DNA from: Candidatus Nanoarchaeia archaeon
Lineage (GTDB): Archaea > Nanobdellota > Nanobdellia > Woesearchaeales > GW2011-AR9
Assembly (NCBI GenBank): GCA_035289385.1
Contig: DATDXI010000031.1
Location: 1 to 57,227, forward strand
Length of the DNA stretch: 57,227 bases
Reading direction: 5' to 3'
The first letter of the stretch is position 1. Every line of letters begins with the position of its first letter. This document shows, one piece after another, positions 27,530-38,626 of this stretch. A program made the translations under genes and the position numbers. Below the pieces are notes generated by a model. That model was not told the origin of the DNA. It searched no databases and worked only from the letters and a program-made list of their open reading frames with translations.

Positions 27530-30097
27530 ATGAAAATAATACCGTTAATGATTTCTTTGTTGGTTGTGCTGCTGTCAGTTGCTGCTTTGGCTGAAGTCGG
27601 TGATGGTAGTCCTGGAGATATAACTATAACTGATGAAGGAAGTGATAGTGGAGATGAAGAAGGTATTGATGATGCTTTGACTGGTACTGATGATGTTCTT
27701 CCGAGCTCAGATGATAGTGCTGTTGATTCAGAAGATTCTGATGATTCTATTATGGATGATGATTTTGGATCAATTTCTGATGGACAAAATGATGCATCTG
27801 CTGAAGAAGCAGGCAGTGATGATGAATCTAGTAATGAAGGATCAGATTCATTTGATGAAGAATTTTCTAGTGTTATTGAAGAAGATATCTATCAGGATGT
27901 AGATGATGTCGCTTTAGAAGGGGAGGCTGGATTGACACCAGACAGCTCATTCTATGTTTTGGAAAATCTTGTGGAATCTGTTCTTGTTGGTGATGATCCG
28001 GTGAAAGCCTTAGAGTATAAAGAGGAGAAGATCTTAGAATTACAGGAGATGGTTGATCAAGGAGATGAAGAAGCTGCGGAGAAAGTATTGGAAAGAGTTG
28101 AGAAGTATAATGAGATCATCAAGAGAGAAGTTTCTCCAGATATGGAAAAGCAAGTGAGGGAAAGCAGTAAGGCGGTTAAAGGTATTTTGGAAGGATTAGA
28201 TTTAGAGGGTGATGAGTGGGAGGATATTCAAGAAAAGGTTGACGAGAATGCTAAAGAAGAAGATAAGATAGCCTTAGCTGCGAAAGTCTCTAAGAAAATA
28301 TCTGAGCTCTGTGAAGCTCTTTCGTCATTAGATCCATTGGAGTATTCAAAGGTTTGCCGGACTGGTGATGAAGCCCCTCAGTGGAAAAGAGACCAAGATA
28401 GGGAGTTGACGGCTGAACAGGAAAAGGAAGCAAAGAAATTTTTTGAGATAATGTCTAGCTGTTATCAGAATCCAGCAGAATGTAAATGTGAGGATATTTC
28501 CATAAAACCATTTGCGGAGCAATGTGCAGTTATTGCTCCTTTGGCTGCGGAATGTGAATCTGGCAATGAAGAAGCCTGTAAGAAGATGGATGATATCGGT
28601 GATCCCATTGACTTACTGCCAGATTATCTCCAAGATGTTATGGCAGATGTCGAAGATAGATATGGAGAAGCGAAGCATGACTTATTTATGCCTCCTGAAT
28701 GTGTTGAGGAAGGCGCTTTAACCAAAGAAGCCTGCTTTAAGGTCATGTTTCGCTTAAATGCGCCTCCAGAATGTCAGGAAGCATTAGAAGCGGGAAAAAT
28801 TGATCCAAAAAATGAGCGTGAAGCACGGGCAGCATGTGAAGAAATTATGTTTACGGCTAATGCCCCTGAGGAATGTCTTGAAGCAGGATTGAAAGATCAT
28901 CGTGACTGTGAAAGATTCATGTTCAAGCTTGATGCACCACAAGAGTGTTTGGATGCGGGCTTAACCGGTTCAGGCAGAGATGACTGGAAGAAATGTGAAG
29001 CCATCCGTTTTAAGCTTGATGCTCCAGAAGAATGTGTTGAAGCTGGCTTAACTGGTTCTGGCAGGGATGATTGGAGAAAATGTGATGCCATCCGATTTAG
29101 GCTAGATGCTCCACAGGAATGTCTTGATGCTGGAATAGATGGAACAGGAAAAGAGGATTGGAAGAAGTGTGAGCTCATCAAATTTAAACTAGAAGCGCCT
29201 CAGGAATGTTTAGATGCAGGGTTAACTGGTTCTGGCAGAGACGATTGGAAGAAATGTGAGAAGATACGATTCCTCCTAGACGCGCCAGAAGAATGTAAGC
29301 AGTTTGCTGATAAGCGTGATCCTTGGAAGGCCTGTCAACCAGTGCAGTTTAAGATGGATGCTCCTCAAGAATGTCTAGATGCTGGTCTTGATGGGACAGG
29401 GAGAGATGACTGGAAGAAGTGTGATAAGATCCGGATGGCCATGGAACAGCAGCAGCGTCCAGAAGGTGATCAGCGTGAAGGAGACTTTAGGCCAGATGAT
29501 CGGCGTGGAGAATTTCCTGGAAAAGAAGGTGAGAGGAGAGGTGATTTCCCACAGGAAGATCAGCGTGGACAACAGCAAGAAGATCAATGCCGTGATTGTT
29601 CTCAGAAATGTGGAGATAGGAGATGGAATTGTAATAATGGGCAATGTGAGTGCTTTGATGATGGGGATGATAGAGATGAAAGTCCTTCGGGGGATGATCA
29701 TCCAAGTGATTCTGGCAGCTTTGATTCTGATGATAGTCGTGATGATAGTGGCTCCAGCAGTGATTCTGGGAGTTCAGATTCAAGTGATGGTGGGTCTTCT
29801 GATAGCGGCAGTTCTGGATCAAGTGGTGATTCTGGGAGTTCAGATTCAAGCGATGGTGGATCTTCTGATAGTGGCAGTTCTGGATCAAGTGGTGATTCTG
29901 GATCAGGAGATAGCGGTTCTTCTGGCGGAGATTCTGGCTCAAGTGGAGATAGTGGCGGCTCAGAAGCATCTAGTGAGAGTTCCGGCGATAGTGTTACCGG
30001 ATCTGCCGTAAGAATCTTTAACCCAACCGGATCGGCGGTAAAGATATTTGATCCTTTAGGAGAGAAAAGATTTAGGGAACTTGGAAGATTCAGGTAA
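27530..30097 (+). CDS. secreted, highly acidic, cysteine-repeat protein (855 aa)
   Basis: Signal peptide MKIIPLMISLLVVLLSVAALA, a D/E/S-rich N-terminal region, 8-9 repeats of about 33 aa (F-K-L-D-A-P-Q-E-C-L-D-A-G-L-T-G-S-G-R-D-D-W-K-K-C) and an S/G/D low-complexity tail. Confidence 0.8.
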   Translation: MKIIPLMISLLVVLLSVAALAEVGDGSPGDITITDEGSDSGDEEGIDDALTGTDDVLPSSDDSAVDSEDSDDSIMDDDFGSISDGQNDASAEEAGSDDESSNEGSDSFDEEFSSVIEEDIYQDVDDVALEGEAGLTPDSSFYVLENLVESVLVGDDPVKALEYKEEKILELQEMVDQGDEEAAEKVLERVEKYNEIIKREVSPDMEKQVRESSKAVKGILEGLDLEGDEWEDIQEKVDENAKEEDKIALAAKVSKKISELCEALSSLDPLEYSKVCRTGDEAPQWKRDQDRELTAEQEKEAKKFFEIMSSCYQNPAECKCEDISIKPFAEQCAVIAPLAAECESGNEEACKKMDDIGDPIDLLPDYLQDVMADVEDRYGEAKHDLFMPPECVEEGALTKEACFKVMFRLNAPPECQEALEAGKIDPKNEREARAACEEIMFTANAPEECLEAGLKDHRDCERFMFKLDAPQECLDAGLTGSGRDDWKKCEAIRFKLDAPEECVEAGLTGSGRDDWRKCDAIRFRLDAPQECLDAGIDGTGKEDWKKCELIKFKLEAPQECLDAGLTGSGRDDWKKCEKIRFLLDAPEECKQFADKRDPWKACQPVQFKMDAPQECLDAGLDGTGRDDWKKCDKIRMAMEQQQRPEGDQREGDFRPDDRRGEFPGKEGERRGDFPQEDQRGQQQEDQCRDCSQKCGDRRWNCNNGQCECFDDGDDRDESPSGDDHPSDSGSFDSDDSRDDSGSSSDSGSSDSSDGGSSDSGSSGSSGDSGSSDSSDGGSSDSGSSGSSGDSGSGDSGSSGGDSGSSGDSGGSEASSESSGDSVTGSAVRIFNPTGSAVKIFDPLGEKRFRELGRFR
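29762..29893 (+). repeat. 66-nt tandem duplication inside the S/G/D tail coding region
   Basis: Units 29762-29827 and 29828-29893 differ at 3 positions (hand alignment). Confidence 0.85.
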
Positions 30098-31396: not shown

Positions 31397-31516
31397 AAGT
31401 AAAAGGGATTTATGAACTTTTCTCTTCTGCAGGCTTTTGAAGAGATTTTGATCTTATGGTGCGATGCATAAACTCCTTAACGTTACATTTTTAAAATAGT
31501 CAGCTATTCCAACAAT

Positions 31517-31780
31517 ATGAATTACGATTTGGAATTAGAAAAAGTCATTCAAGAGATCAAGAAAGCGGATGCTAAGTTAGTATGTCTGCAGCTGCCGGAT
31601 GGCTTAAAGCCAGAAGCGAAGGCTATTGAAGCGGAAATAACTAAGAAAACAGGTGCAAAAGTGCTTATTTGGCTGGGAAGCTGTTTTGGTGCTTGTGATG
31701 TTCCTGTTGGCTTAAAGAATTTAGGGATTGACTTATTATTCAGTTGGGGACATAATACATTTAGAAAAGAGATGTGGTAG
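31517..31780 (+). CDS. dph2: Dph2 (diphthamide synthesis radical-SAM enzyme), N-terminal domain fragment
   Basis: 87 aa. LVCLQLPDGLKPEAKAIEAEI...GSCFGACDV...FSWGHNTF aligns with domain 1 of archaeal Dph2 as I recall it, including the first cluster Cys. TATA-like ATTTTTAAAATA box upstream. Confidence 0.8.
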   Translation: MNYDLELEKVIQEIKKADAKLVCLQLPDGLKPEAKAIEAEITKKTGAKVLIWLGSCFGACDVPVGLKNLGIDLLFSWGHNTFRKEMW

Positions 31781-31811
31781 GTTTTTTATAGTCATTTATT
31801 ATTCTCCATGC

Positions 31812-32819
31812 ATGCAAAAGAGGTTGTTGATAGTGTCTATATTGTTGATAGGAATGCTGCTCTTCCTTCTATCCTCTTGTAATGATAATGGAAATGAACT
31901 CCCTCAAAATGCTCCTTCTACCGTTGATAAAGAAGCGTTGTATGATCAAGCGATCAAGAAATTAACAGGGAACGAATCGGTCAATACTACACGTCTTGAT
32001 AAGCGCTTTACTGCCCTGGAACAGCAATTGTCTGGATTTGTTGATGGTGATGAAGAGATGGACATTGCCGAATTTACGAGAATAAAGATCGCGATGGATT
32101 ATCTTGAAGGAGAAGGATATGATCCTGGAAAAATTACCCGTCTTGAAACGATGTTTAAAGCGGCATATGCTGAAGCAGAAGGAAAGATCGAAGATATCGA
32201 TGGAAGTTTAGCTGACAGGTATAATGAGCTGAACAGGACGCTGCAACGGGTTTCTTCCGGTGATGACGTTTTGACACTACCACGCTATCTGGAGATGGAA
32301 AGAGGGATCAATGAACTGGAAAAAGATGGCTATATGATCGCTTCCAGGATCGCCAGCCTTCGTACTGGGCTTTTGCAGGCTGTTCTTCATGAATTGGAAA
32401 CAGCATTAATTCATTTTGAAGTGCCGGAAGAAGTTGGCGTAGAGCAATTGCCAGATGAAGAAGATGCTGTGGAAGGTGGTAGTGATGGAGATGAAAGCGA
32501 TGCTGTTGATGAAAGCGAAACAGATGTTGCTTCTGACGTTCCAGAAGAGTCTCTTCAGCCTGTGATACGTTTAGTTGATGGTGGCTTAGACAAAGAGAAA
32601 ATGACGGTAAAAGTTGGTCAAACCGTCATTTTTGAGAATGATCGCCAGGGGCATTATAAGCTGGGCTTTGTGGTTGGAAACAGGGTCTGCCGTGATCTCA
32701 AGAGCGGATTTTTTAATAGTGGAGAGAGTTATAACTGGACGTTTGTTGAGGAACAAACATGCTGGGTATCTGATGGGATATTTACGACAGAGGCGGTGAA
32801 GATTGTGGTGATAGGTTGA
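31812..32819 (+). CDS. lipoprotein with an acidic linker and a possible cupredoxin-like C-terminal domain
   Basis: The start is set at MQKRLLIVSILLIGMLLFLLSSC (lipobox). The C-terminus VKVGQTVIFENDRQGH... is beta-sandwich-like (tentative). Confidence 0.6.
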   Translation: MQKRLLIVSILLIGMLLFLLSSCNDNGNELPQNAPSTVDKEALYDQAIKKLTGNESVNTTRLDKRFTALEQQLSGFVDGDEEMDIAEFTRIKIAMDYLEGEGYDPGKITRLETMFKAAYAEAEGKIEDIDGSLADRYNELNRTLQRVSSGDDVLTLPRYLEMERGINELEKDGYMIASRIASLRTGLLQAVLHELETALIHFEVPEEVGVEQLPDEEDAVEGGSDGDESDAVDESETDVASDVPEESLQPVIRLVDGGLDKEKMTVKVGQTVIFENDRQGHYKLGFVVGNRVCRDLKSGFFNSGESYNWTFVEEQTCWVSDGIFTTEAVKIVVIG

Positions 32820-32832
32820 TTTTGGCTTTGAG

Positions 32833-33684
32833 TCATAACTTTTGTTGTGGCTTCTTTTTTGAGGAATTAGCTATCTTTTCTTCATCGGATTTTACTGTCT
32901 TCTGCAATTTTTGAATGTCCTCTTCAGGAGGCAGATCTTCTGGCCTAATACCGCTTTTTGCGAGGAGTTTTCTGACATCCTTATTATTTTTAACATGTTC
33001 TCTAGTTATTTTTGGTTCTTTCTCCATATCTTCTTTCTTAACATTAAAGTTTGTTATTTCTGTTGCTAAGTTTTTGGCAGTTATCGTAATTGTTGGTAAG
33101 AAATCAGCTAAAGGCCTTTTCTGTGGAATTTGTAACTTCTTCTTCATCTCCAAAGTAGAAAATCCGCCAAATAATGCTTCATCTCCCTTGCTTCTGATTC
33201 TGGCGAAACCTGCTTCATCTACACCTCGTTCATAGATAAGTTTTGAGAGTTCTGTTTCAGAAGCTACTAATTTTTGCCTTGCTGTTAATCGTTCCATGAG
33301 AGCTATCCTTTGCTCTATCAACTCTTGTTTTCTGGTTTGTACTGCAAAATAGCTTTGGGCAAATGCGATCTGCTCTTTCCTAGGGTCACCATTCTGGGCT
33401 ATAAGATAACAGGCATAGCGAGTGAGCATAAAATTGTCAATCTCTTTAGAAGCCCCTTTGGGCATAGCTATCGTTTTGTTGACGCCAACAAAATGATCAT
33501 TGATTTCCTGTCCAGCAGTTTTACAGGATGTTTTTGCCTTCTCTATCACATTCAGAAAGTTTCTCCATTCATCATAATCTAAGAGTTTCTGAAGATCACG
33601 GGCATACCAGAATTCTATACCATCTGCATTATGAGCATACTCTTCAAAGGTCTTTTGTAAGGTGGCGATAAGTGCTAATTTCAT
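32833..33684 (-). CDS. dinD: DNA-damage-inducible protein D (DinD)-like protein
   Basis: WYARDLQKLLDYDEWRNF...LTRYACYLIAQNGDPRKEQIAFAQSYFAVQTRKQE closely parallels E. coli DinD as I remember it. Confidence 0.8.
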   Translation of the reverse strand: MKLALIATLQKTFEEYAHNADGIEFWYARDLQKLLDYDEWRNFLNVIEKAKTSCKTAGQEINDHFVGVNKTIAMPKGASKEIDNFMLTRYACYLIAQNGDPRKEQIAFAQSYFAVQTRKQELIEQRIALMERLTARQKLVASETELSKLIYERGVDEAGFARIRSKGDEALFGGFSTLEMKKKLQIPQKRPLADFLPTITITAKNLATEITNFNVKKEDMEKEPKITREHVKNNKDVRKLLAKSGIRPEDLPPEEDIQKLQKTVKSDEEKIANSSKKKPQQKL

Positions 33685-33786
33685 GGTCTATCTTTTAAGG
33701 TGGTTTTCGGATTCTCTGTAGACTTTACCTTCCAGCTTCTTCTTTTATATTATAGAGTATTACTCCTTTATATATTCTACCCGCAC

Positions 33787-33850
33787 TTGCAAGAAATTAG
33801 GAAACTACCTAATTTCTGCACAGAAATATGATCTTTGTCATATTTCTTGT
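33787..33850. repeat. two adjacent bulged hairpins (TGCAAGAAAT-type stems)
   Basis: TGCAAGAAATTAGG-aaacta-CCTAATTTCTGCA is followed by ACAGAAATATGA-tctttg-TCATATTTCTTGT. The first stem is shared with the insert of MITE copies 3 and 4. Confidence 0.75.
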
Positions 33851-33882
33851 GTCCAGTGGCTAGTGGGTATACATACTTCTCA

Positions 33883-33896
33883 GCAACGTTTATAAA
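33883..33896 (+). promoter_or_regulatory. BRE/TATA-like box (GCAACGTTTATAAA)
   Basis: About 24 nt upstream of the ATG at 33920, giving the C-terminal dph2 fragment its own promoter. Confidence 0.55.
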
Positions 33897-33919
33897 ACAG
33901 TATTGATATCTTTACAAAT

Positions 33920-34615
33920 ATGAAAACGATCTTTTTGGAAGCGCCGTATTTAGGTAAGGTGCGGCTCTGTAAGAAGACTCTTGATTATCTTGCGAAAAAA
34001 AAAGTGAAAACTGTTGCCTTGTATGCAGCAGTGCAGTTCTGTAATAATCTTGAATTGATTAAGCAGCAATTAGTGGATGCTGGCGTTACTGTCATCTCCT
34101 CAAAGCCAAAGAGGACGGATGCCCATCAGCAGATTCTTGGCTGTGATGTCTATGAAGATTCGTTGCATCTTTCTGCTAAAGAACGAGAGAATATCGATGC
34201 TTTCTTATACATTGGTGATGGTAAATTTCATCCATTAGCTTTATTGCATGGGCAGAAAGCAGAAATAATATGTGATGATCCTATCGCTCAACGGATGGAG
34301 ATTCTTTCTCCCACTCTTATCGATCATATCAAAAAGAAGCAGAAAGGGGCATTGATAAAGTTTTATGCTCATCAAAACATAGGGGTTATTATCTCTACAA
34401 AGCCTGGACAGCAGTTCATGAAGAAAGCTTTTTCACTTGAAGAGAAGTATCCCCAGAAGAAATTTTATTATTTTGTCGATGACCAGATATCCTTTGACCA
34501 GCTGGAAAATTTTCCATTCATCGATGTCTGGGTGAATACGGCTTGCCCCAGGATAGGATTGGATGACATCGAGAAGTTCAGGAAAGGTGTTGTGAATCTC
34601 AGGGATGTGGTGTAG
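33920..34615 (+). CDS. dph2: Dph2, domains 2-3 fragment
   Basis: 231 aa. KTIFLEAPY..., ILGCDVY, YIGDGKFHPLAL and VNTACPRIGLDD align with the remainder of archaeal Dph2, including the second and third cluster Cys. Confidence 0.85.
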   Translation: MKTIFLEAPYLGKVRLCKKTLDYLAKKKVKTVALYAAVQFCNNLELIKQQLVDAGVTVISSKPKRTDAHQQILGCDVYEDSLHLSAKERENIDAFLYIGDGKFHPLALLHGQKAEIICDDPIAQRMEILSPTLIDHIKKKQKGALIKFYAHQNIGVIISTKPGQQFMKKAFSLEEKYPQKKFYYFVDDQISFDQLENFPFIDVWVNTACPRIGLDDIEKFRKGVVNLRDVV

Positions 34616-35012
34616 GTTGTTTGTCTTTTCTTACTTGTTCTAAAACAAGAGAACAAAGTGAGTCTATTTCCGAGTGTGTATCTCCCTCCAAAGAAAGAAT
34701 ATCTTCAGGAATATCTAATTGAATGACTTTTCTTCTCGTTGTCTTTTCATATGATCTTCCATCCATCAAAGGCACACACGCGGTGCTTCTTTCTTTTTCT
34801 TCATAAGCATTTTTTTGGACTAATTCCGATAAAGAAAAACCATCAAATTTCCTAGAATATGTTATTGACTGTCCTCCGCCAATTGCACCACTCCATTGTT
34901 GAATAATTGCTAGGGATTGATCAGTAAAATAGAAGATCCTATCCCCAAAATATCTTGTCCCATAACGACTATCTGATTCTGAGTATCTTTCGTCGACTAT
35001 CAATACTTTCAT
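34599..35012 (-). CDS. hypothetical protein (137 aa)
   Basis: ORF only. Convergent with and slightly overlapping the dph2 C-fragment. Confidence 0.45.
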   Translation of the reverse strand: MKVLIVDERYSESDSRYGTRYFGDRIFYFTDQSLAIIQQWSGAIGGGQSITYSRKFDGFSLSELVQKNAYEEKERSTACVPLMDGRSYEKTTRRKVIQLDIPEDILSLEGDTHSEIDSLCSLVLEQVRKDKQPTPHP

Positions 35013-35099
35013 ATTAATTCATGTTGAGAGATACTATATAAATCATTGTTGTCTAAAATTAGAAGAAAAGTTTAAATAGGGTATAATTTCATTAAAGCT

Positions 35100-35840
35100 A
35101 TGGATATACATCTGAAGGAAATATTGTTGAAAGTAGGGTTAACTTCAAGAGAATCTGAAGCTTATTTATCTTTACTGAAGAGAGGGGAAAGTTCAGCTTT
35201 TGAAGTCAGTAAAGACATCAAAGAATCAAGAACAAATGTTTATTCTACTTTACTTTCATTAATAAAGAGAGGATTAGTAACCTACATCATTAAGAGAAGC
35301 AAGAAGTTTTTTAAGGCGGCAAATCCTGAGATATTATTGGAAATAATCAAAGAGAGAGAACAATTACTCTCCACAAATATTAACTCTTTCTTGAATTATT
35401 ATCAGCCTTATCATGGCATTCAAGTAGAGGTTTATGAAGGAACTGAGGGTATAAAAACGATTTGGAATGAAGTGCTAAGGGAAGGTAAGGAGGTATTTGT
35501 TATTGGAAGTACAGGAGAAAGCACTGAAGTACTACAGGGATTTAATTTTATCAAGTTCCATAAGGCAAGATTAAGGAAGAAGATCAGATTAAAAATATTG
35601 GTGAATACCACAAAAAAAGCTATATCTCATGCAAAAAAGATTGTAAAAATTGGGAATGGGGAGTATAGGGTTCTTCCTTTTGATAAACCAGTGACCACTT
35701 ATATCTATGGAGATAATGTTGTCTTATTTGAATGGAAAAAAAGCCAATTAACTGCAGTTCATATTACGAGTAAGGGTATGGCAGAATCATTCAAAAGTCA
35801 ATTTAAGTTTATATGGGATAGATGCACTAGTTTTTCTTAA
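35100..35840 (+). CDS. TrmB-family transcriptional regulator
   Basis: N-terminal wHTH (GLTSRESEAYLSLLKRGESSAFEVSKDIKESRTNVYSTLLSLIKRGLV). AAAAGTTTAAATAGG box upstream. Confidence 0.8.
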   Translation: MDIHLKEILLKVGLTSRESEAYLSLLKRGESSAFEVSKDIKESRTNVYSTLLSLIKRGLVTYIIKRSKKFFKAANPEILLEIIKEREQLLSTNINSFLNYYQPYHGIQVEVYEGTEGIKTIWNEVLREGKEVFVIGSTGESTEVLQGFNFIKFHKARLRKKIRLKILVNTTKKAISHAKKIVKIGNGEYRVLPFDKPVTTYIYGDNVVLFEWKKSQLTAVHITSKGMAESFKSQFKFIWDRCTSFS

Positions 35841-35853
35841 AGGTTACAAATAC

Positions 35854-36882
35854 TTACACCATCTCATACGCTCTCAAAATAATCTCTTCCGTCTTTTCCC
35901 AGCCTAAACAGCTGTCAGTGATAGAAACTCCTTTCTGCAGCTGCTCTTGATGTGGATCTTGGCTTCCTTCCACTAAGTTTGATTCTATCATCACGCTAAA
36001 AATATGTTTATTCGTTTTCATCTGCTGGATGACAGAGAAAAAGACGTTTGGCTGATTGATATGATTCTTTCCAGAATTACCATGGCTGCAATCTACCATA
36101 ATCAATGGATCTAAACCACTCTGCTGCAGCTCTTTCTGGCATAGCCGGATATGCTCTTGAGAAAAGTTAGGTGTTGCTCCTCCTCTGAGTACAAGGTGGC
36201 AATATGGGTTGCCGGAAGAATGATGCTCCGTCAGCCGCCCTTCATCATTGACGAGAGCAAAACATTGCTGTTCCCGTGCTGTACTGATAGCATTAATCGC
36301 GGGAATGATCTCTCCTTGTGGGGTGTTCTTGAATCCGACTGGTAAATTTAGGCTAGAGACGACATGGCGATGGTGTGGCGATTCCACCGTTCTTGCTCCG
36401 ATAGTCGCCCAGGAAACTAGGTCAATATAATAGGGGATCAATGAGGGGGTTACGATCTCTACTCCTAATGCAACTCCGATAGCTGTAAGATCTACCAAGA
36501 GCTGTCGTGATATCTTTAGACCTTTATTGAGATTAAATGGCTTTTTGATGTCTGGCTCATGGATCAATCCAGTCCATCCCATCTTTGTCCTGGGCTTTTC
36601 AATATAAGCTCTCATCACAATCAAGAATTTATCCTGTACTCTGTCAGCAAGTTCTTTGAGTAAGTGAGCATATTCTTTTGCCTCGTTTACGTCATGGATT
36701 GAGCAGGGACCGACAATAAGGAGTTTTCTTTTATCTTTTCCCAGAATAATATCTTTGATCTCTTTCCTTGATTTTTGAATGAGCTTCCTGCTTTTATCAG
36801 AGAGAGGAAACTGTCTCTTGATCTCTCGAGGTGAAGCCAACAGTTTGCTTTTTGCTGTCTTTTTGGGTTGTGTTGTGGTCAT
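35854..36882 (-). CDS. 3-deoxy-7-phosphoheptulonate (DAHP) synthase, class I
   Basis: LLIVGPCSIHD and IEKPRTKMGWTGL motifs. The start is moved to MTTTQPKK because the conserved promoter box lies at 36916-36929. Confidence 0.9.
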   Translation of the reverse strand: MTTTQPKKTAKSKLLASPREIKRQFPLSDKSRKLIQKSRKEIKDIILGKDKRKLLIVGPCSIHDVNEAKEYAHLLKELADRVQDKFLIVMRAYIEKPRTKMGWTGLIHEPDIKKPFNLNKGLKISRQLLVDLTAIGVALGVEIVTPSLIPYYIDLVSWATIGARTVESPHHRHVVSSLNLPVGFKNTPQGEIIPAINAISTAREQQCFALVNDEGRLTEHHSSGNPYCHLVLRGGATPNFSQEHIRLCQKELQQSGLDPLIMVDCSHGNSGKNHINQPNVFFSVIQQMKTNKHIFSVMIESNLVEGSQDPHQEQLQKGVSITDSCLGWEKTEEIILRAYEMV

Positions 36883-36915
36883 TTGTTTTTTTATAAGGGC
36901 TGAGCTATCCTCTAT

Positions 36916-36929
36916 TTTATAAACGTTGC
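36916..36929 (-). promoter_or_regulatory. BRE/TATA-like box (GCAACGTTTATAAA on the minus strand)
   Basis: Third copy of the same 12-14-mer, about 33 nt upstream of the ATG at 36882. Confidence 0.5.
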
Positions 36930-37021
36930 TTTTGATTCTTAGATAGAGAGACAGTAGCACTTCACCGTGGCGGAGGGCCGTCTTCCGTCTTCCTCGCTTC
37001 GTGAGATAAGTGTCATAGTAT

Positions 37022-37060
37022 ATAATATCTTAAGTGATAATATCTTAAGTGATAATATCA
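37022..37060. repeat. 15-bp tandem repeat, about 2.6 copies (ATAATATCTTAAGTG)
   Basis: Units at 37022-37036 and 37037-37051, plus a partial unit at 37052-37060. Confidence 0.85.
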
Positions 37061-37246
37061 TAGAGGATGAAAGTAATTAATAATTTTCAGGTGGTTTTCA
37101 TCCAGGCATATCGTAACACTCGTCAGACATTTTAGCTAAGCCGCCCTCCGCTTCAGGATAGTGAGGAAGTACAGGGAATAGTTTCGGGTTATAACAGGGG
37201 AATAGTTAAGGGATACCACTAGAAAAAAAGTATAGTCCCCCAAAAA

Positions 37247-38626
37247 TCAGGTAAGCAGTCGTCTGCCGGGGATAGGCACGCCACTTTGTATCGCTTCCAA
37301 CTGCACGGAAAGAGCGGTTAATTTTGCGGAATAGGCAGAAGTGTTATAGATAGGGTGCCTATTAGCCAGCCAGGGATGGGATATGGCTTCTGTTCTTAAC
37401 TGTTCAGATTCCTGAACTCCGTCAAAATTAATTCTCCAAGCACGACCCCATCCGTCCTTATTCTCCACAGTATTTCTTAATTGCTCTTGAGCATCTTCCT
37501 TCTTCTTTGACCATGCTTCAACTAATTTTGGATGCTGCTTTTTTATTTCCTGAACGCAGTAATCTAATTTTTTTTCAGCCCTTGATTGAAAATTTTCCAT
37601 TAGCCTTGACAGGTAATATAAAATATCGGGAGTGGCCCCATAAACTGCCTGATCTCTCATTTTTTGCTCGGGGAAAATCTCACCAGGAAAAAGTGCAGGA
37701 GCGTATTCCCTGCGCCTTTCTGCAGCTCCAAATCCTTCAAAAAGAGACAAAAATTCAAGGGATGGAAACCCAGCGTGAATAGGTTTAGCAATTCCCCCCA
37801 CTGCTTTCTCTAATTTTCTCCGGACATCTGGAAAAATATCTAAATATTCATTCCTTTCCCAGTGTTTTTTACGCTCAATCCTGAACCGAATGCCGGCATA
37901 ATTTCCTGCCATCAGGTCAAGGGCATCATTCATGGCGCTGAATACTCCTGAACCAGGAATCCTAAACCTCCCCTCGACAATCATAGTCAGACGTTTTGCT
38001 AATCCTGGCTTTTCTTTGGCATACCTATCTAATTCTTCTAGGCATTGGTCCATCCTCTTCTGAAGGGGTTCGGAAGCTGCCCTATAAAATGAATCAATCA
38101 TTTTCTTGATTAGCTCTGCTTGGTGGAGTTCTGACTGAACAAATCTTGCCGTTGCTACCAAGTCTTCGTTTCCTTCAAAGTAGGCCCCCGTTGATACGCT
38201 TCTTATCATTGTTTGATCATCAGGATATTCTGTGGGATCATGGGTTGCAAAGTAGGTTACCCATTGTTCAGCTTTGCTCAGCTCGCCCTGCAATCGTTGC
38301 TCTTCTTCTCTTAAGAAGATGGTATTAGCCCTGGGAATGGGATCATCTTTCACTTTTGGATGATAGACTGACGTTACAATAAAATCGCAAATCTGCCGCA
38401 ATGACTCTTCACTGAATTCAGCAAATCCCAAGTGCCGTAAGAATGATGACAGCTCAAAATGCAATCCATAAAATTGCTCAATATCAGCCATAGGGTTGCC
38501 AAACTGTCGCAGCGCTTCAACCTGCTCATGCATATACGAGAGGCCTTCTTTGGCATCGCTCATCTGCATCTGAAAATGAGTCGCTCGTAATGCTGTCCCT
38601 ATCCTGCTTTCCAGATTGTCAGCCAT
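37247..38626 (-). CDS. hypothetical protein (459 aa, helical)
   Basis: Long ORF. No family recognised. Confidence 0.6.
   Translation of the reverse strand: MADNLESRIGTALRATHFQMQMSDAKEGLSYMHEQVEALRQFGNPMADIEQFYGLHFELSSFLRHLGFAEFSEESLRQICDFIVTSVYHPKVKDDPIPRANTIFLREEEQRLQGELSKAEQWVTYFATHDPTEYPDDQTMIRSVSTGAYFEGNEDLVATARFVQSELHQAELIKKMIDSFYRAASEPLQKRMDQCLEELDRYAKEKPGLAKRLTMIVEGRFRIPGSGVFSAMNDALDLMAGNYAGIRFRIERKKHWERNEYLDIFPDVRRKLEKAVGGIAKPIHAGFPSLEFLSLFEGFGAAERRREYAPALFPGEIFPEQKMRDQAVYGATPDILYYLSRLMENFQSRAEKKLDYCVQEIKKQHPKLVEAWSKKKEDAQEQLRNTVENKDGWGRAWRINFDGVQESEQLRTEAISHPWLANRHPIYNTSAYSAKLTALSVQLEAIQSGVPIPGRRLLT

Follow-up and report, generated by a model that had tools for sequence, protein, structure and literature searches.

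The DNA analysed here, referred to throughout as the window, is a stretch of 57,227 nt from a Candidatus Nanoarchaeia archaeon (contig DATDXI010000031.1, assembly GCA_035289385.1). It carries two open reading frames (ORFs), dph2N and dph2C, that match consecutive parts of Dph2, the radical-SAM (S-adenosylmethionine) enzyme of the first step of diphthamide synthesis. The two lie on the same strand and are separated by a spacer of 2139 nt, which contains a lipoprotein gene and, on the opposite strand, a dinD gene. An earlier note on this DNA, made by a model from the sequence, had described dph2 as split by a 2.1 kb insert and had offered two explanations: that the split gene is functional, or that inserted DNA disrupted it recently. 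The two ORFs are as follows (aa, amino acids; Fe-S, iron-sulphur).

31517..31780, + strand: dph2N, 87 aa, N-terminal part of Dph2; the bulk of domain 1, with C60, the first Fe-S ligand, beside D61
33920..34615, + strand: dph2C, 231 aa, C-terminal part of Dph2; domains 2 and 3 preceded by the last strand of domain 1; Fe-S ligands C75 (LGCD) and C209 (ACPR)

The earlier note had matched the first of these ORFs to Dph2 domain 1 and had regarded the second as a continuation of the same alignment, and both assignments hold up in profile searches and in alignments to structures. Against PF01866 (cutoff 33.2), dph2N matches profile positions 1-57 with 37.5 bits and dph2C positions 76-284 with 125.5 bits; against TIGR00322 (cutoff 35), dph2N scores 69.2 bits over positions 1-82 and dph2C 125.7 bits. 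On TIGR03682, which has 308 positions, dph2N occupies positions 2-65 and dph2C positions 72-291. The profile matches of the two ORFs are consecutive, without overlap and with at most about six profile positions left unaligned. The protein encoded by dph2N ends in FSWGHNTFRKEMW (...KEMW), and that encoded by dph2C starts with MKTIFLEAPY. When aligned with the Dph2 of Methanobrevibacter smithii (PDB 6q2d), residues 3-81 of dph2N correspond to residues 7-85, and residues 18-226 of dph2C to residues 110-309. The stretch between the halves that stays unaligned is 23 residues long for the split pair, against 24 for the one-chain protein; measured against P. horikoshii Dph2, the same stretch is 18 and 19 residues, respectively. 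Matches to Dph2 chains in the PDB reach E values of 8.6e-14 for dph2N and 1.1e-19 for dph2C. We found that two ORFs, each with its own start and stop codon, jointly span a one-piece homolog with neither gap nor overlap, and by these alignments the split pair has lost nothing and gained nothing relative to a one-piece Dph2. No second dph2-like sequence was found elsewhere in the window.

In P. horikoshii Dph2 the ligands of the Fe-S cluster are Cys59 (beside Asp60), Cys163 and Cys287 (PMC11048331). Counterparts of all three, as the earlier note had pointed out, are present: GACDV (C60-D61) in dph2N, and LGCDVY and TACPRIG in dph2C. These cysteines do not vary among the 25 N halves and 30 C halves aligned or in a further alignment (A3), and line up with GACD, LGC and TACPR of the PDB chains. 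More broadly, dph2C keeps 49 of the 49 invariant columns of the C-half alignment (A1), and dph2N keeps 18 of 18 in the N-half alignment (A2). We also modelled dph2N and dph2C, joined end to end, with AlphaFold, using an input alignment that spans the C half only. The resulting model has a predicted local distance difference test score (pLDDT) of 77.8 and a predicted template-modelling score (pTM) of 0.62; a model made without any alignment was poor (pLDDT 48). A Foldseek search with the joined model returned, at E <= 0.001, only archaeal Dph2 crystal structures, with template-modelling (TM) scores of 0.61-0.72 over 313-325 columns. The top 15 matches are all Dph2 (6q2d, 6bxm and 3lzd among them), and the next match has a TM score of 0.23. 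The three-domain Dph2 fold is thus predicted for the joined chains, with low confidence around the junction.

When N and C halves were aligned jointly (alignments A4 and A5), MAFFT placed the first half of C over N, with GACD over LGCD and WGH over GDGKFHP. This may reflect similarity between domain 1 and domain 2 of Dph2, or may be an alignment artefact; joint alignment of the halves is a trap for automated alignment of Dph2 fragments. At its 3' end, dph2C shares 17 nt (34599-34615) with the 3' end of an ORF of 137 aa that runs towards it (34599-35012, - strand); we found no confident family match for this ORF, which occurs in near-identical contigs only.

Protein searches returned 1909 relatives of dph2C and 722 stand-alone homologs of dph2N, and lengths were taken from the best 120 of each. 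All 120 of the best N-half homologs are 82-102 aa long, and 119 of the 120 best C-half homologs are 225-271 aa long. Identity to the window protein is 60-77% for the N halves and 54-76% for the C halves, and the named sources of both are Woesearchaeota or Nanoarchaeota; over all relatives, Pacearchaeota are named as well. One relative that appeared to be fused (P0113, 346 aa) was rejected, as it owes its length to an unrelated N-terminal extension from a miscalled start. A genome scan with one genome per species yielded 80 loci, of which 76 have the N half within 1.8 kb upstream of the C half, both on the same strand; of the remaining four, one is cut by a contig end and three have no N half in the available flank. 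None of the 80 loci carries a fused dph2 gene. The junctions were tabulated for 76 loci (74 scan loci together with L001 and L003), and in every one the break falls at the same point, the N half ending in ...GH-x(5-10) and the C half starting with M-x-x-(L/I)F. In 41 of these 76 loci the distance from the N stop to the C start is -10 to +3 nt (ATGGTAA, TAAATG, TAAGATG and similar). Among relatives with both halves on a single contig, L001 is the closest (76-77% aa identity); its two ORFs overlap by 7 nt (ATGGTAA), with no insert.

The split of dph2 is therefore one that the related genomes share, as the comparison suggested in the earlier note (contiguous or split in relatives) makes plain: the gene is split at this residue in the 76 loci, and no fused version was found. 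It is old and lineage-wide in Woesearchaeales and Pacearchaeales-type DPANN archaea. Because the break point is common to the 76 loci, most of them without an insert, the insert in the window entered a gene that was already split, and the claim that dph2 had been divided by a 2.1 kb insert has to be abandoned.

Three loci have 86-136 nt free of ORFs between the halves (L046, 9864-10001; L059, 9873-10001; L066, 9914-10001). These gaps end in a degenerate duplicate of the 3' end of the N half, for example TTAACAAAAAGGTGGGATGGTAA just before the ATG of the C half; the duplicates could be scars of a lost insert, or duplications made at insertion. Many of the species-representative metagenome-assembled genomes with this split dph2 (L004, L007, L009 and others, from binchicken assemblies) are titled 'uncultured Methanosarcinales archaeon', which looks like a taxonomy label error in the records.

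We estimated the rates of non-synonymous (dN) and synonymous (dS) substitution, and their ratio omega, for each fragment, as the earlier note had proposed. Against L091, which has the same order of N half and lipoprotein gene, dph2N has a dN of 0.044-0.047 and a dS of 0.9-1.26, and hence an omega of 0.04-0.05; the flanking genes have higher values, of 0.07-0.18. For dph2C, compared with L001 and L087, dN is 0.17-0.21 and dS is saturated, so that dN alone is usable. Both halves are under purifying selection. The arrangement of the locus was found in other assemblies as well: the order of N half, lipoprotein gene, dinD and C half is identical in L084 (ENA ERZ28563625; 99.98% identity over 12.9 kb) and in L085 (JGI 3300025317; 99.95% over 10.6 kb). 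An assembly error between the halves, which the earlier note had raised as a concern, is excluded because these two, from different samples, carry the same arrangement. A third assembly (L002) begins inside dinD and agrees with the window over the part that it covers.

Over window positions 33427-37778, L002 is 99.84% identical to the window, with seven differences in 4352 nt, six of which are in dph2C. Three of the six are non-synonymous and three synonymous, too few for a selection test. The three replacements (L46F, V52A and V56I) all fall within 11 codons (codons 46-56, ~34055-34087), and this clustering could mark a small recombination tract or micro-heterogeneity among strains.

Between the halves, the earlier note had listed a lipoprotein gene, a dinD-like gene on the opposite strand and a pair of hairpins. 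All of these are present, the two genes as ORFs (the second with a match to NF008573) and the hairpins as perfect palindromes, to which we return below.

31812..32819, + strand: lipoprotein gene of 335 aa (signal peptide, LSSC lipobox), 32 nt downstream of dph2N
32833..33684, - strand: dinD (DNA-damage-inducible protein D family; Bro-N domain), 283 aa; NF008573 at 354 bits (cutoff 242), E 4.5e-106; PF02498

The lipoprotein gene matches no Pfam or NCBIfam family and is probably co-transcribed with dph2N. Its ortholog in L001 (53% aa identity) lies just upstream of dph2N, between it and a DUF5667-family gene that is the same one as in the window. In L091 (69%) the ortholog directly follows dph2N, and in L087 (43%) it is upstream of dph2C. 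The gene order of L091, at 78% nucleotide identity, is that of the window (a 127-aa gene on the - strand, dph2N, lipoprotein gene), and that of L087, at 73% identity in the C half, is lipoprotein gene, an unrelated 187-aa gene on the - strand, and dph2C. The separated layout has therefore been kept through considerable divergence. Judged from gene order, the lipoprotein gene is a relocated native neighbour and not foreign DNA.

In PADLOC, the DinD protein matches PDC-S13, a candidate for single-gene defence (E 9e-115); it also matches part of a model for the specificity subunit of type I restriction systems. Its homologs in other genomes (those named are Woesearchaeota or Nanoarchaeota) show 73-85% aa identity, above the 54-76% seen for Dph2. 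An 84%-identical copy of dinD in L086 has an unrelated neighbourhood, and the similarity at the DNA level stops at the borders of the ORF. The gene resembles an accessory or defence gene that moves horizontally among these archaea. Within the insert as a whole we found no transposase or integrase and no GC anomaly, and flanking direct, inverted or terminal repeats and target-site duplications were not beyond chance. The insert is a later arrival of mixed origin, not a single piece of foreign DNA. The separation in the window is the longest seen among linked halves, and an antisense gene directly upstream of the C half occurs in few loci (the window, L065 and L087).

Each fragment had been credited in the earlier note with a TATA-like box of its own, and such boxes were indeed found. 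The candidate expression signals are the following.

31487..31498, + strand: TATA-like box of dph2N, ATTTTTAAAATA, centred ~25 nt before the ATG; predicted promoter
33888..33898, + strand: TATA-like box of dph2C, GTTTATAAAAC, centred 27 nt before the ATG; predicted promoter
32830..32863, + strand: hairpin and T-run after the lipoprotein gene, from a consensus terminator scan; overlaps the 3' end of dinD

TATA-like motifs upstream of dph2N in 75 relatives peak at -32..-28 from the ATG; the box of the window has this position, and the spacing predicts leaderless dph2N transcripts. For the C half, we examined 79 starts. A strict Shine-Dalgarno (SD)-like 4-mer is found at -16..-4 in 49 of them, and a TATA-like motif at -36..-21 in nine. 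Eight of these nine (L012, L019, L024, L065, L075, L078, L079 and L083) have no SD-like 4-mer, and all eight are loci in which the C half is preceded by an insert or is unlinked. In relatives, the codons for the conserved ...EGW tail of N contain GGAGG or GGTGG, an SD-like motif. Tight spacing of the halves together with an SD motif in the N tail is a signature that points to translational coupling of two separate proteins in most relatives, and not to frameshifting or readthrough. In the window, no SD-like motif lies between the TATA-like box of dph2C and its ATG, and dph2C is most likely transcribed on its own, as a predicted leaderless mRNA. We rejected the idea that the dph2C promoter is a copy of the dph2N promoter, as their local alignment is not significant (59 of 500 shuffles were as good). 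The hairpin at 32830-32863 is a possible end of a transcript of dph2N and the lipoprotein gene, a weak candidate, since such sites are no more numerous than shuffling would predict. In ~50 related loci (e.g. L019, L025, L034 and L065), dph2N has two TATA-like boxes in front of it at fixed positions, ATATATAAA near -30 and CTATAAAAA near -16; of these, only the distal one is present in the window and L001.

Taking these results together, we consider it highly probable that dph2N and dph2C form a functional, ancient two-gene Dph2 and are not the product of a recent disruption. Of the two explanations in the earlier note, the functional split gene is borne out by the old, shared break and by the omega of 0.04-0.05, and the recent disruption is refuted by the comparative data. 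The split would have originated in domain 1, through the appearance of a stop codon and a start codon in a loop that follows the conserved GH motif and precedes the next strand, presumably with no residue lost or gained. The 87-aa N protein would then provide most of domain 1 and C60, and the 231-aa C protein the last strand of domain 1, domains 2 and 3, and the other two ligands. The two chains would join non-covalently, with a [4Fe-4S] cluster held by cysteines of both, and the N-C unit presumably pairs as homodimeric archaeal Dph2 does. In most relatives the halves are, at the level of sequence, translationally coupled, their stop and start codons overlapping or 0-3 nt apart. In the window lineage this coupling was broken by a lipoprotein gene that moved behind dph2N and by a mobile dinD inserted on the opposite strand; once dinD separated it from the dph2N transcript, the C half would have changed from an operon-internal, SD-led gene to a promoter-proximal, leaderless one. 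The window is thus an intermediate between coupled and fully unlinked halves, and both of these extremes occur in relatives.

Several points weigh against this interpretation, or at least call for caution. We infer the assembly of the halves, Fe-S binding and activity from sequence, and the promoters and the leaderless state are assigned by motif position only. The TIGR03682 scores (51.3 bits for dph2N, 140 for dph2C, 191.3 as a plain sum) are below the equivalog cutoff of 202.8, although this is what fragments of a diverged DPANN ortholog should be expected to give. Residues 56-89 of the joined model, which include the junction, have pLDDT < 50 and no alignment depth; the model is unreliable there and uncertain over the N part, and it is sequence alignment and weak DSSP calls that put the break within the sheet of domain 1. 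Finally, dph5, dph6 and the gene for elongation factor 2 (EF-2) are absent from the 28 window ORFs scanned, and none of these ORFs is of EF-2 size (~730 aa); Dph5 has been reported in Woesearchaeota by Narrowe et al. 2018 (PMC6143161).

One rival explanation concerns the genes found between the halves in relatives. Such cargo is present in 24 of the 76 loci of the junction table and is of at least ten unrelated kinds: members of the UDG superfamily (six loci), an unknown family of ~220 aa (six), HicB-like genes (five), DUF1016/YhcG (PDC-S02; two), another unknown family (two), and an M23 peptidase on the opposite strand, LigT-like and NYN-domain genes and others. In a neighbour-joining tree of C halves the cargo states are interleaved with the coupled state, which implies a dozen or so gains and losses of cargo. 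This variety, the scatter of cargo over the tree and the degenerate duplicates before the C half in L046, L059 and L066 could be read as marks of a dedicated integration hotspot, integron-like or homing-endonuclease-like, that would explain the split and the cargo alike. We regard a hotspot of this kind as unlikely. The N-C pair is interrupted in 21/65 cases, and other same-strand syntenic pairs of these loci have comparable rates (5/19, 17/35 and 2/14), on crude gene calls that were identical for all pairs; an integrase, attC-like site or endonuclease is not a regular feature of the junction; the inserts mostly fit closely between the halves and leave no space for recombination sites; and the split requires no insertion, as no residues were gained or lost. 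The simplest reading is one of general gene-order fluidity, with selection keeping N and C ordered and close, for which no dedicated site is needed.

A related proposal is that the dph2 junction is a preferred landing site, at which Woesearchaeota repeatedly gain and lose accessory genes, among them the defence candidates DinD (PDC-S13), YhcG (PDC-S02), NYN, HicB-like and UDG-like; the cargo might then ride on an operon that selection holds together. This we hold to be doubtful. If it were true, the series from coupled halves, through halves separated by cargo as in the window, to unlinked halves would be a stepwise record of how DPANN split genes drift apart and gain promoters.

It is very unlikely that the C half alone is the working enzyme, the N half being dispensable or serving in another role, in which case the separation would not matter for function. 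The C half does have domains 2 and 3 and all but one of the three cysteine ligands, and in three more distant loci (L078, L079 and L083, ~41% identity) it stands alone, with an in-frame stop 7-32 codons upstream and with no N half found within ~10 kb upstream, profile search included. However, an N half missing within 10 kb is not necessarily missing from the genome, and in 76 of the 79 informative loci it lies beside the C half. The N half is also the more conserved of the two (60-77% against 54-76% identity), and keeps C60-D61 and the GH motif invariant under strong purifying selection.

Two further explanations were weighed. Continued production of a full-length protein, by programmed frameshifting, readthrough, RNA trans-splicing or split-intein protein splicing, is conceivable as readthrough in the eight of 41 tightly linked relatives whose halves share a frame and have only a stop codon between them (gap 0 or 3 nt), but is extremely improbable as an account of the system: all three relative reading frames occur among closely spaced N/C pairs, so that no single recoding mechanism fits; the halves in the window are 2.1 kb apart and, because an antisense gene lies between them, no recoding could restore a single chain there; the N half is not within ~10 kb in L078, L079 and L083; and the features of a split intein are lacking, as the N half ends in ...KEMW and the C half starts with MKTIF without extra domains, C halves start with M-K/E/D and not with a Cys, Ser or Thr nucleophile, and the summed length equals that of a one-piece Dph2, with no room for an intein-like sequence. 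A recent disruption, in which 2.1 kb of foreign DNA interrupted an intact dph2 and left fragments that are now decaying pseudogenes, would suit the two unrelated genes that part the halves, one of them on the opposite strand, and the mobile character of dinD, but can be given hardly any credence when the same break occurs in 76 relatives (41 of them without any insert) and no relative has an intact gene, when every invariant residue is kept in both ORFs and neither fragment shows decay, when dph2N has an omega of 0.04-0.05 inside a lineage that shares the separated layout, and when half of the insert is a native neighbour gene and the whole has no transposase, integrase, flanking repeats or GC anomaly.

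The split of dph2 in DPANN archaea has already been published, and the window is an instance of a known phenomenon. Split Dph1/2 (arCOG04112) was reported in DPANN archaea by Narrowe et al. 2018 (PMC6143161), and in Parvarchaeota, Pacearchaeota, Woesearchaeota and Altiarchaeota by Dombrowski et al. 2019 (PMC6349945). These reports concern the same protein, phenomenon and taxa as the window, and the relevant text of the two accounts, supplement aside, gives no break point, gene arrangement or expression signals. What the present comparison adds is the identical break point, coupling as the default state, the frequency of intervening genes, the secondary and composite nature of the insert, and an apparent switch from SD to TATA signals. 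Podar et al. 2013 (PMC3655853) described a split DPH2 in the nanoarchaeon Nst1, encoded by the unlinked genes Nst 222 and Nst 440. As in the window, DPH2 of Nst1 and the split genes of Nanoarchaeum equitans each represent a housekeeping protein made from two ORFs in a reduced DPANN genome, and the split proteins of both are presumed to assemble after translation. The Nst1 halves, judged by their gene numbers, are far apart, whereas those in the window are 2.1 kb apart and retain the ancestral order and orientation.

The eukaryotic Dph1-Dph2 heterodimer likewise consists of two different polypeptides, each of which adds to the radical-SAM/Fe-S chemistry (PMC11048331). Eukaryotic Dph1 and Dph2, however, are full-length paralogs with three domains and a cluster of their own, whereas the protomer in the window is cut within domain 1, and a single cluster would be held by two chains. 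In Aeromonas phage Aeh1, nrdA is split by the free-standing homing endonuclease gene mobE, and the halves reassemble into an active enzyme. Here too an enzyme gene exists as two ORFs with another gene between them. In Aeh1 the inserted selfish gene caused the split; in the window lineage the split predates the inserts, which differ between lineages, and none of the inserts at the dph2 junction is a recognised homing endonuclease. The window locus is a natural case that argues for an enzyme made as two polypeptides, probably with one shared Fe-S cluster, and if this is correct it would offer a convenient way to study how fragments of a radical-SAM enzyme complement each other. When Woesearchaeota genomes are annotated, a pair of short ORFs labelled 'diphthamide synthesis protein' should be read neither as pseudogenes nor as a duplicated or missing marker gene.

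The divergent intergenic region between dinD and dph2C contains a further feature.

33792..33817 and 33822..33847, no strand: two adjacent perfect 10-bp palindromes, AGAAATTAGG-N6-CCTAATTTCT and AGAAATATGA-N6-TCATATTTCT

The pair (33792-33847) has a DNA fold z of -6.6. Rfam has no family for the hairpin region, and none matched anywhere in the window at gathering scores. A function of the hairpins as a signal of dinD was considered and rejected, as the dinD copy in L086 has no hairpins and hairpins occur elsewhere in unrelated contexts.

The pair belongs to a family of tandem palindromic repeats that recurs in contigs of Woesearchaeota. The unit of ~30 nt is a perfect palindrome with a stem of 9 and a loop of 6, an outer GAAAT...ATTTC, and linkers such as TGCACA. 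Sites were found in L121 (279-344), L027 (3826-3990), L038 (5080-5162 and 12737-12790), L019 (8562-8725), L043 (6239-6292) and L064 (6497-6578), and also in L094, L109, L114, L116, L106, L120 and others. L121 has the same two-hairpin element, in which hairpin 1 is identical and hairpin 2 keeps the loop TCTTTG with four compensated stem changes. In an alignment of 11 sequences, 12 of 18 pairs are changed on both sides, a count that is partly circular, the sequences having been chosen for perfect stems. Large genes of 1064-1431 aa, putatively ribonucleotide reductase (RNR)-like, are preceded at 165-282 nt by arrays of 4-6 conserved units, and hairpin pairs also precede a gene starting MEYIYAAMLLHKAGKK (L120) and lie upstream of dinD in the window. 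The element is possibly a repeat of the REP (repetitive extragenic palindrome) or BIME (bacterial interspersed mosaic element) type, an operator array or a leader RNA.

Upstream of dph2N, at 27530-30097 on the + strand, the window encodes a secreted protein of 855 aa, the L001 ortholog of which is DUF5667-like. It has a long acidic Ser/Gly/Asp tail and about seven tandem cysteine-rich modules (LDAPxECLDAGLTGSGRDDWKKCE...), and the corresponding DNA repeats (~28920-29435) are 68-78% identical to one another.

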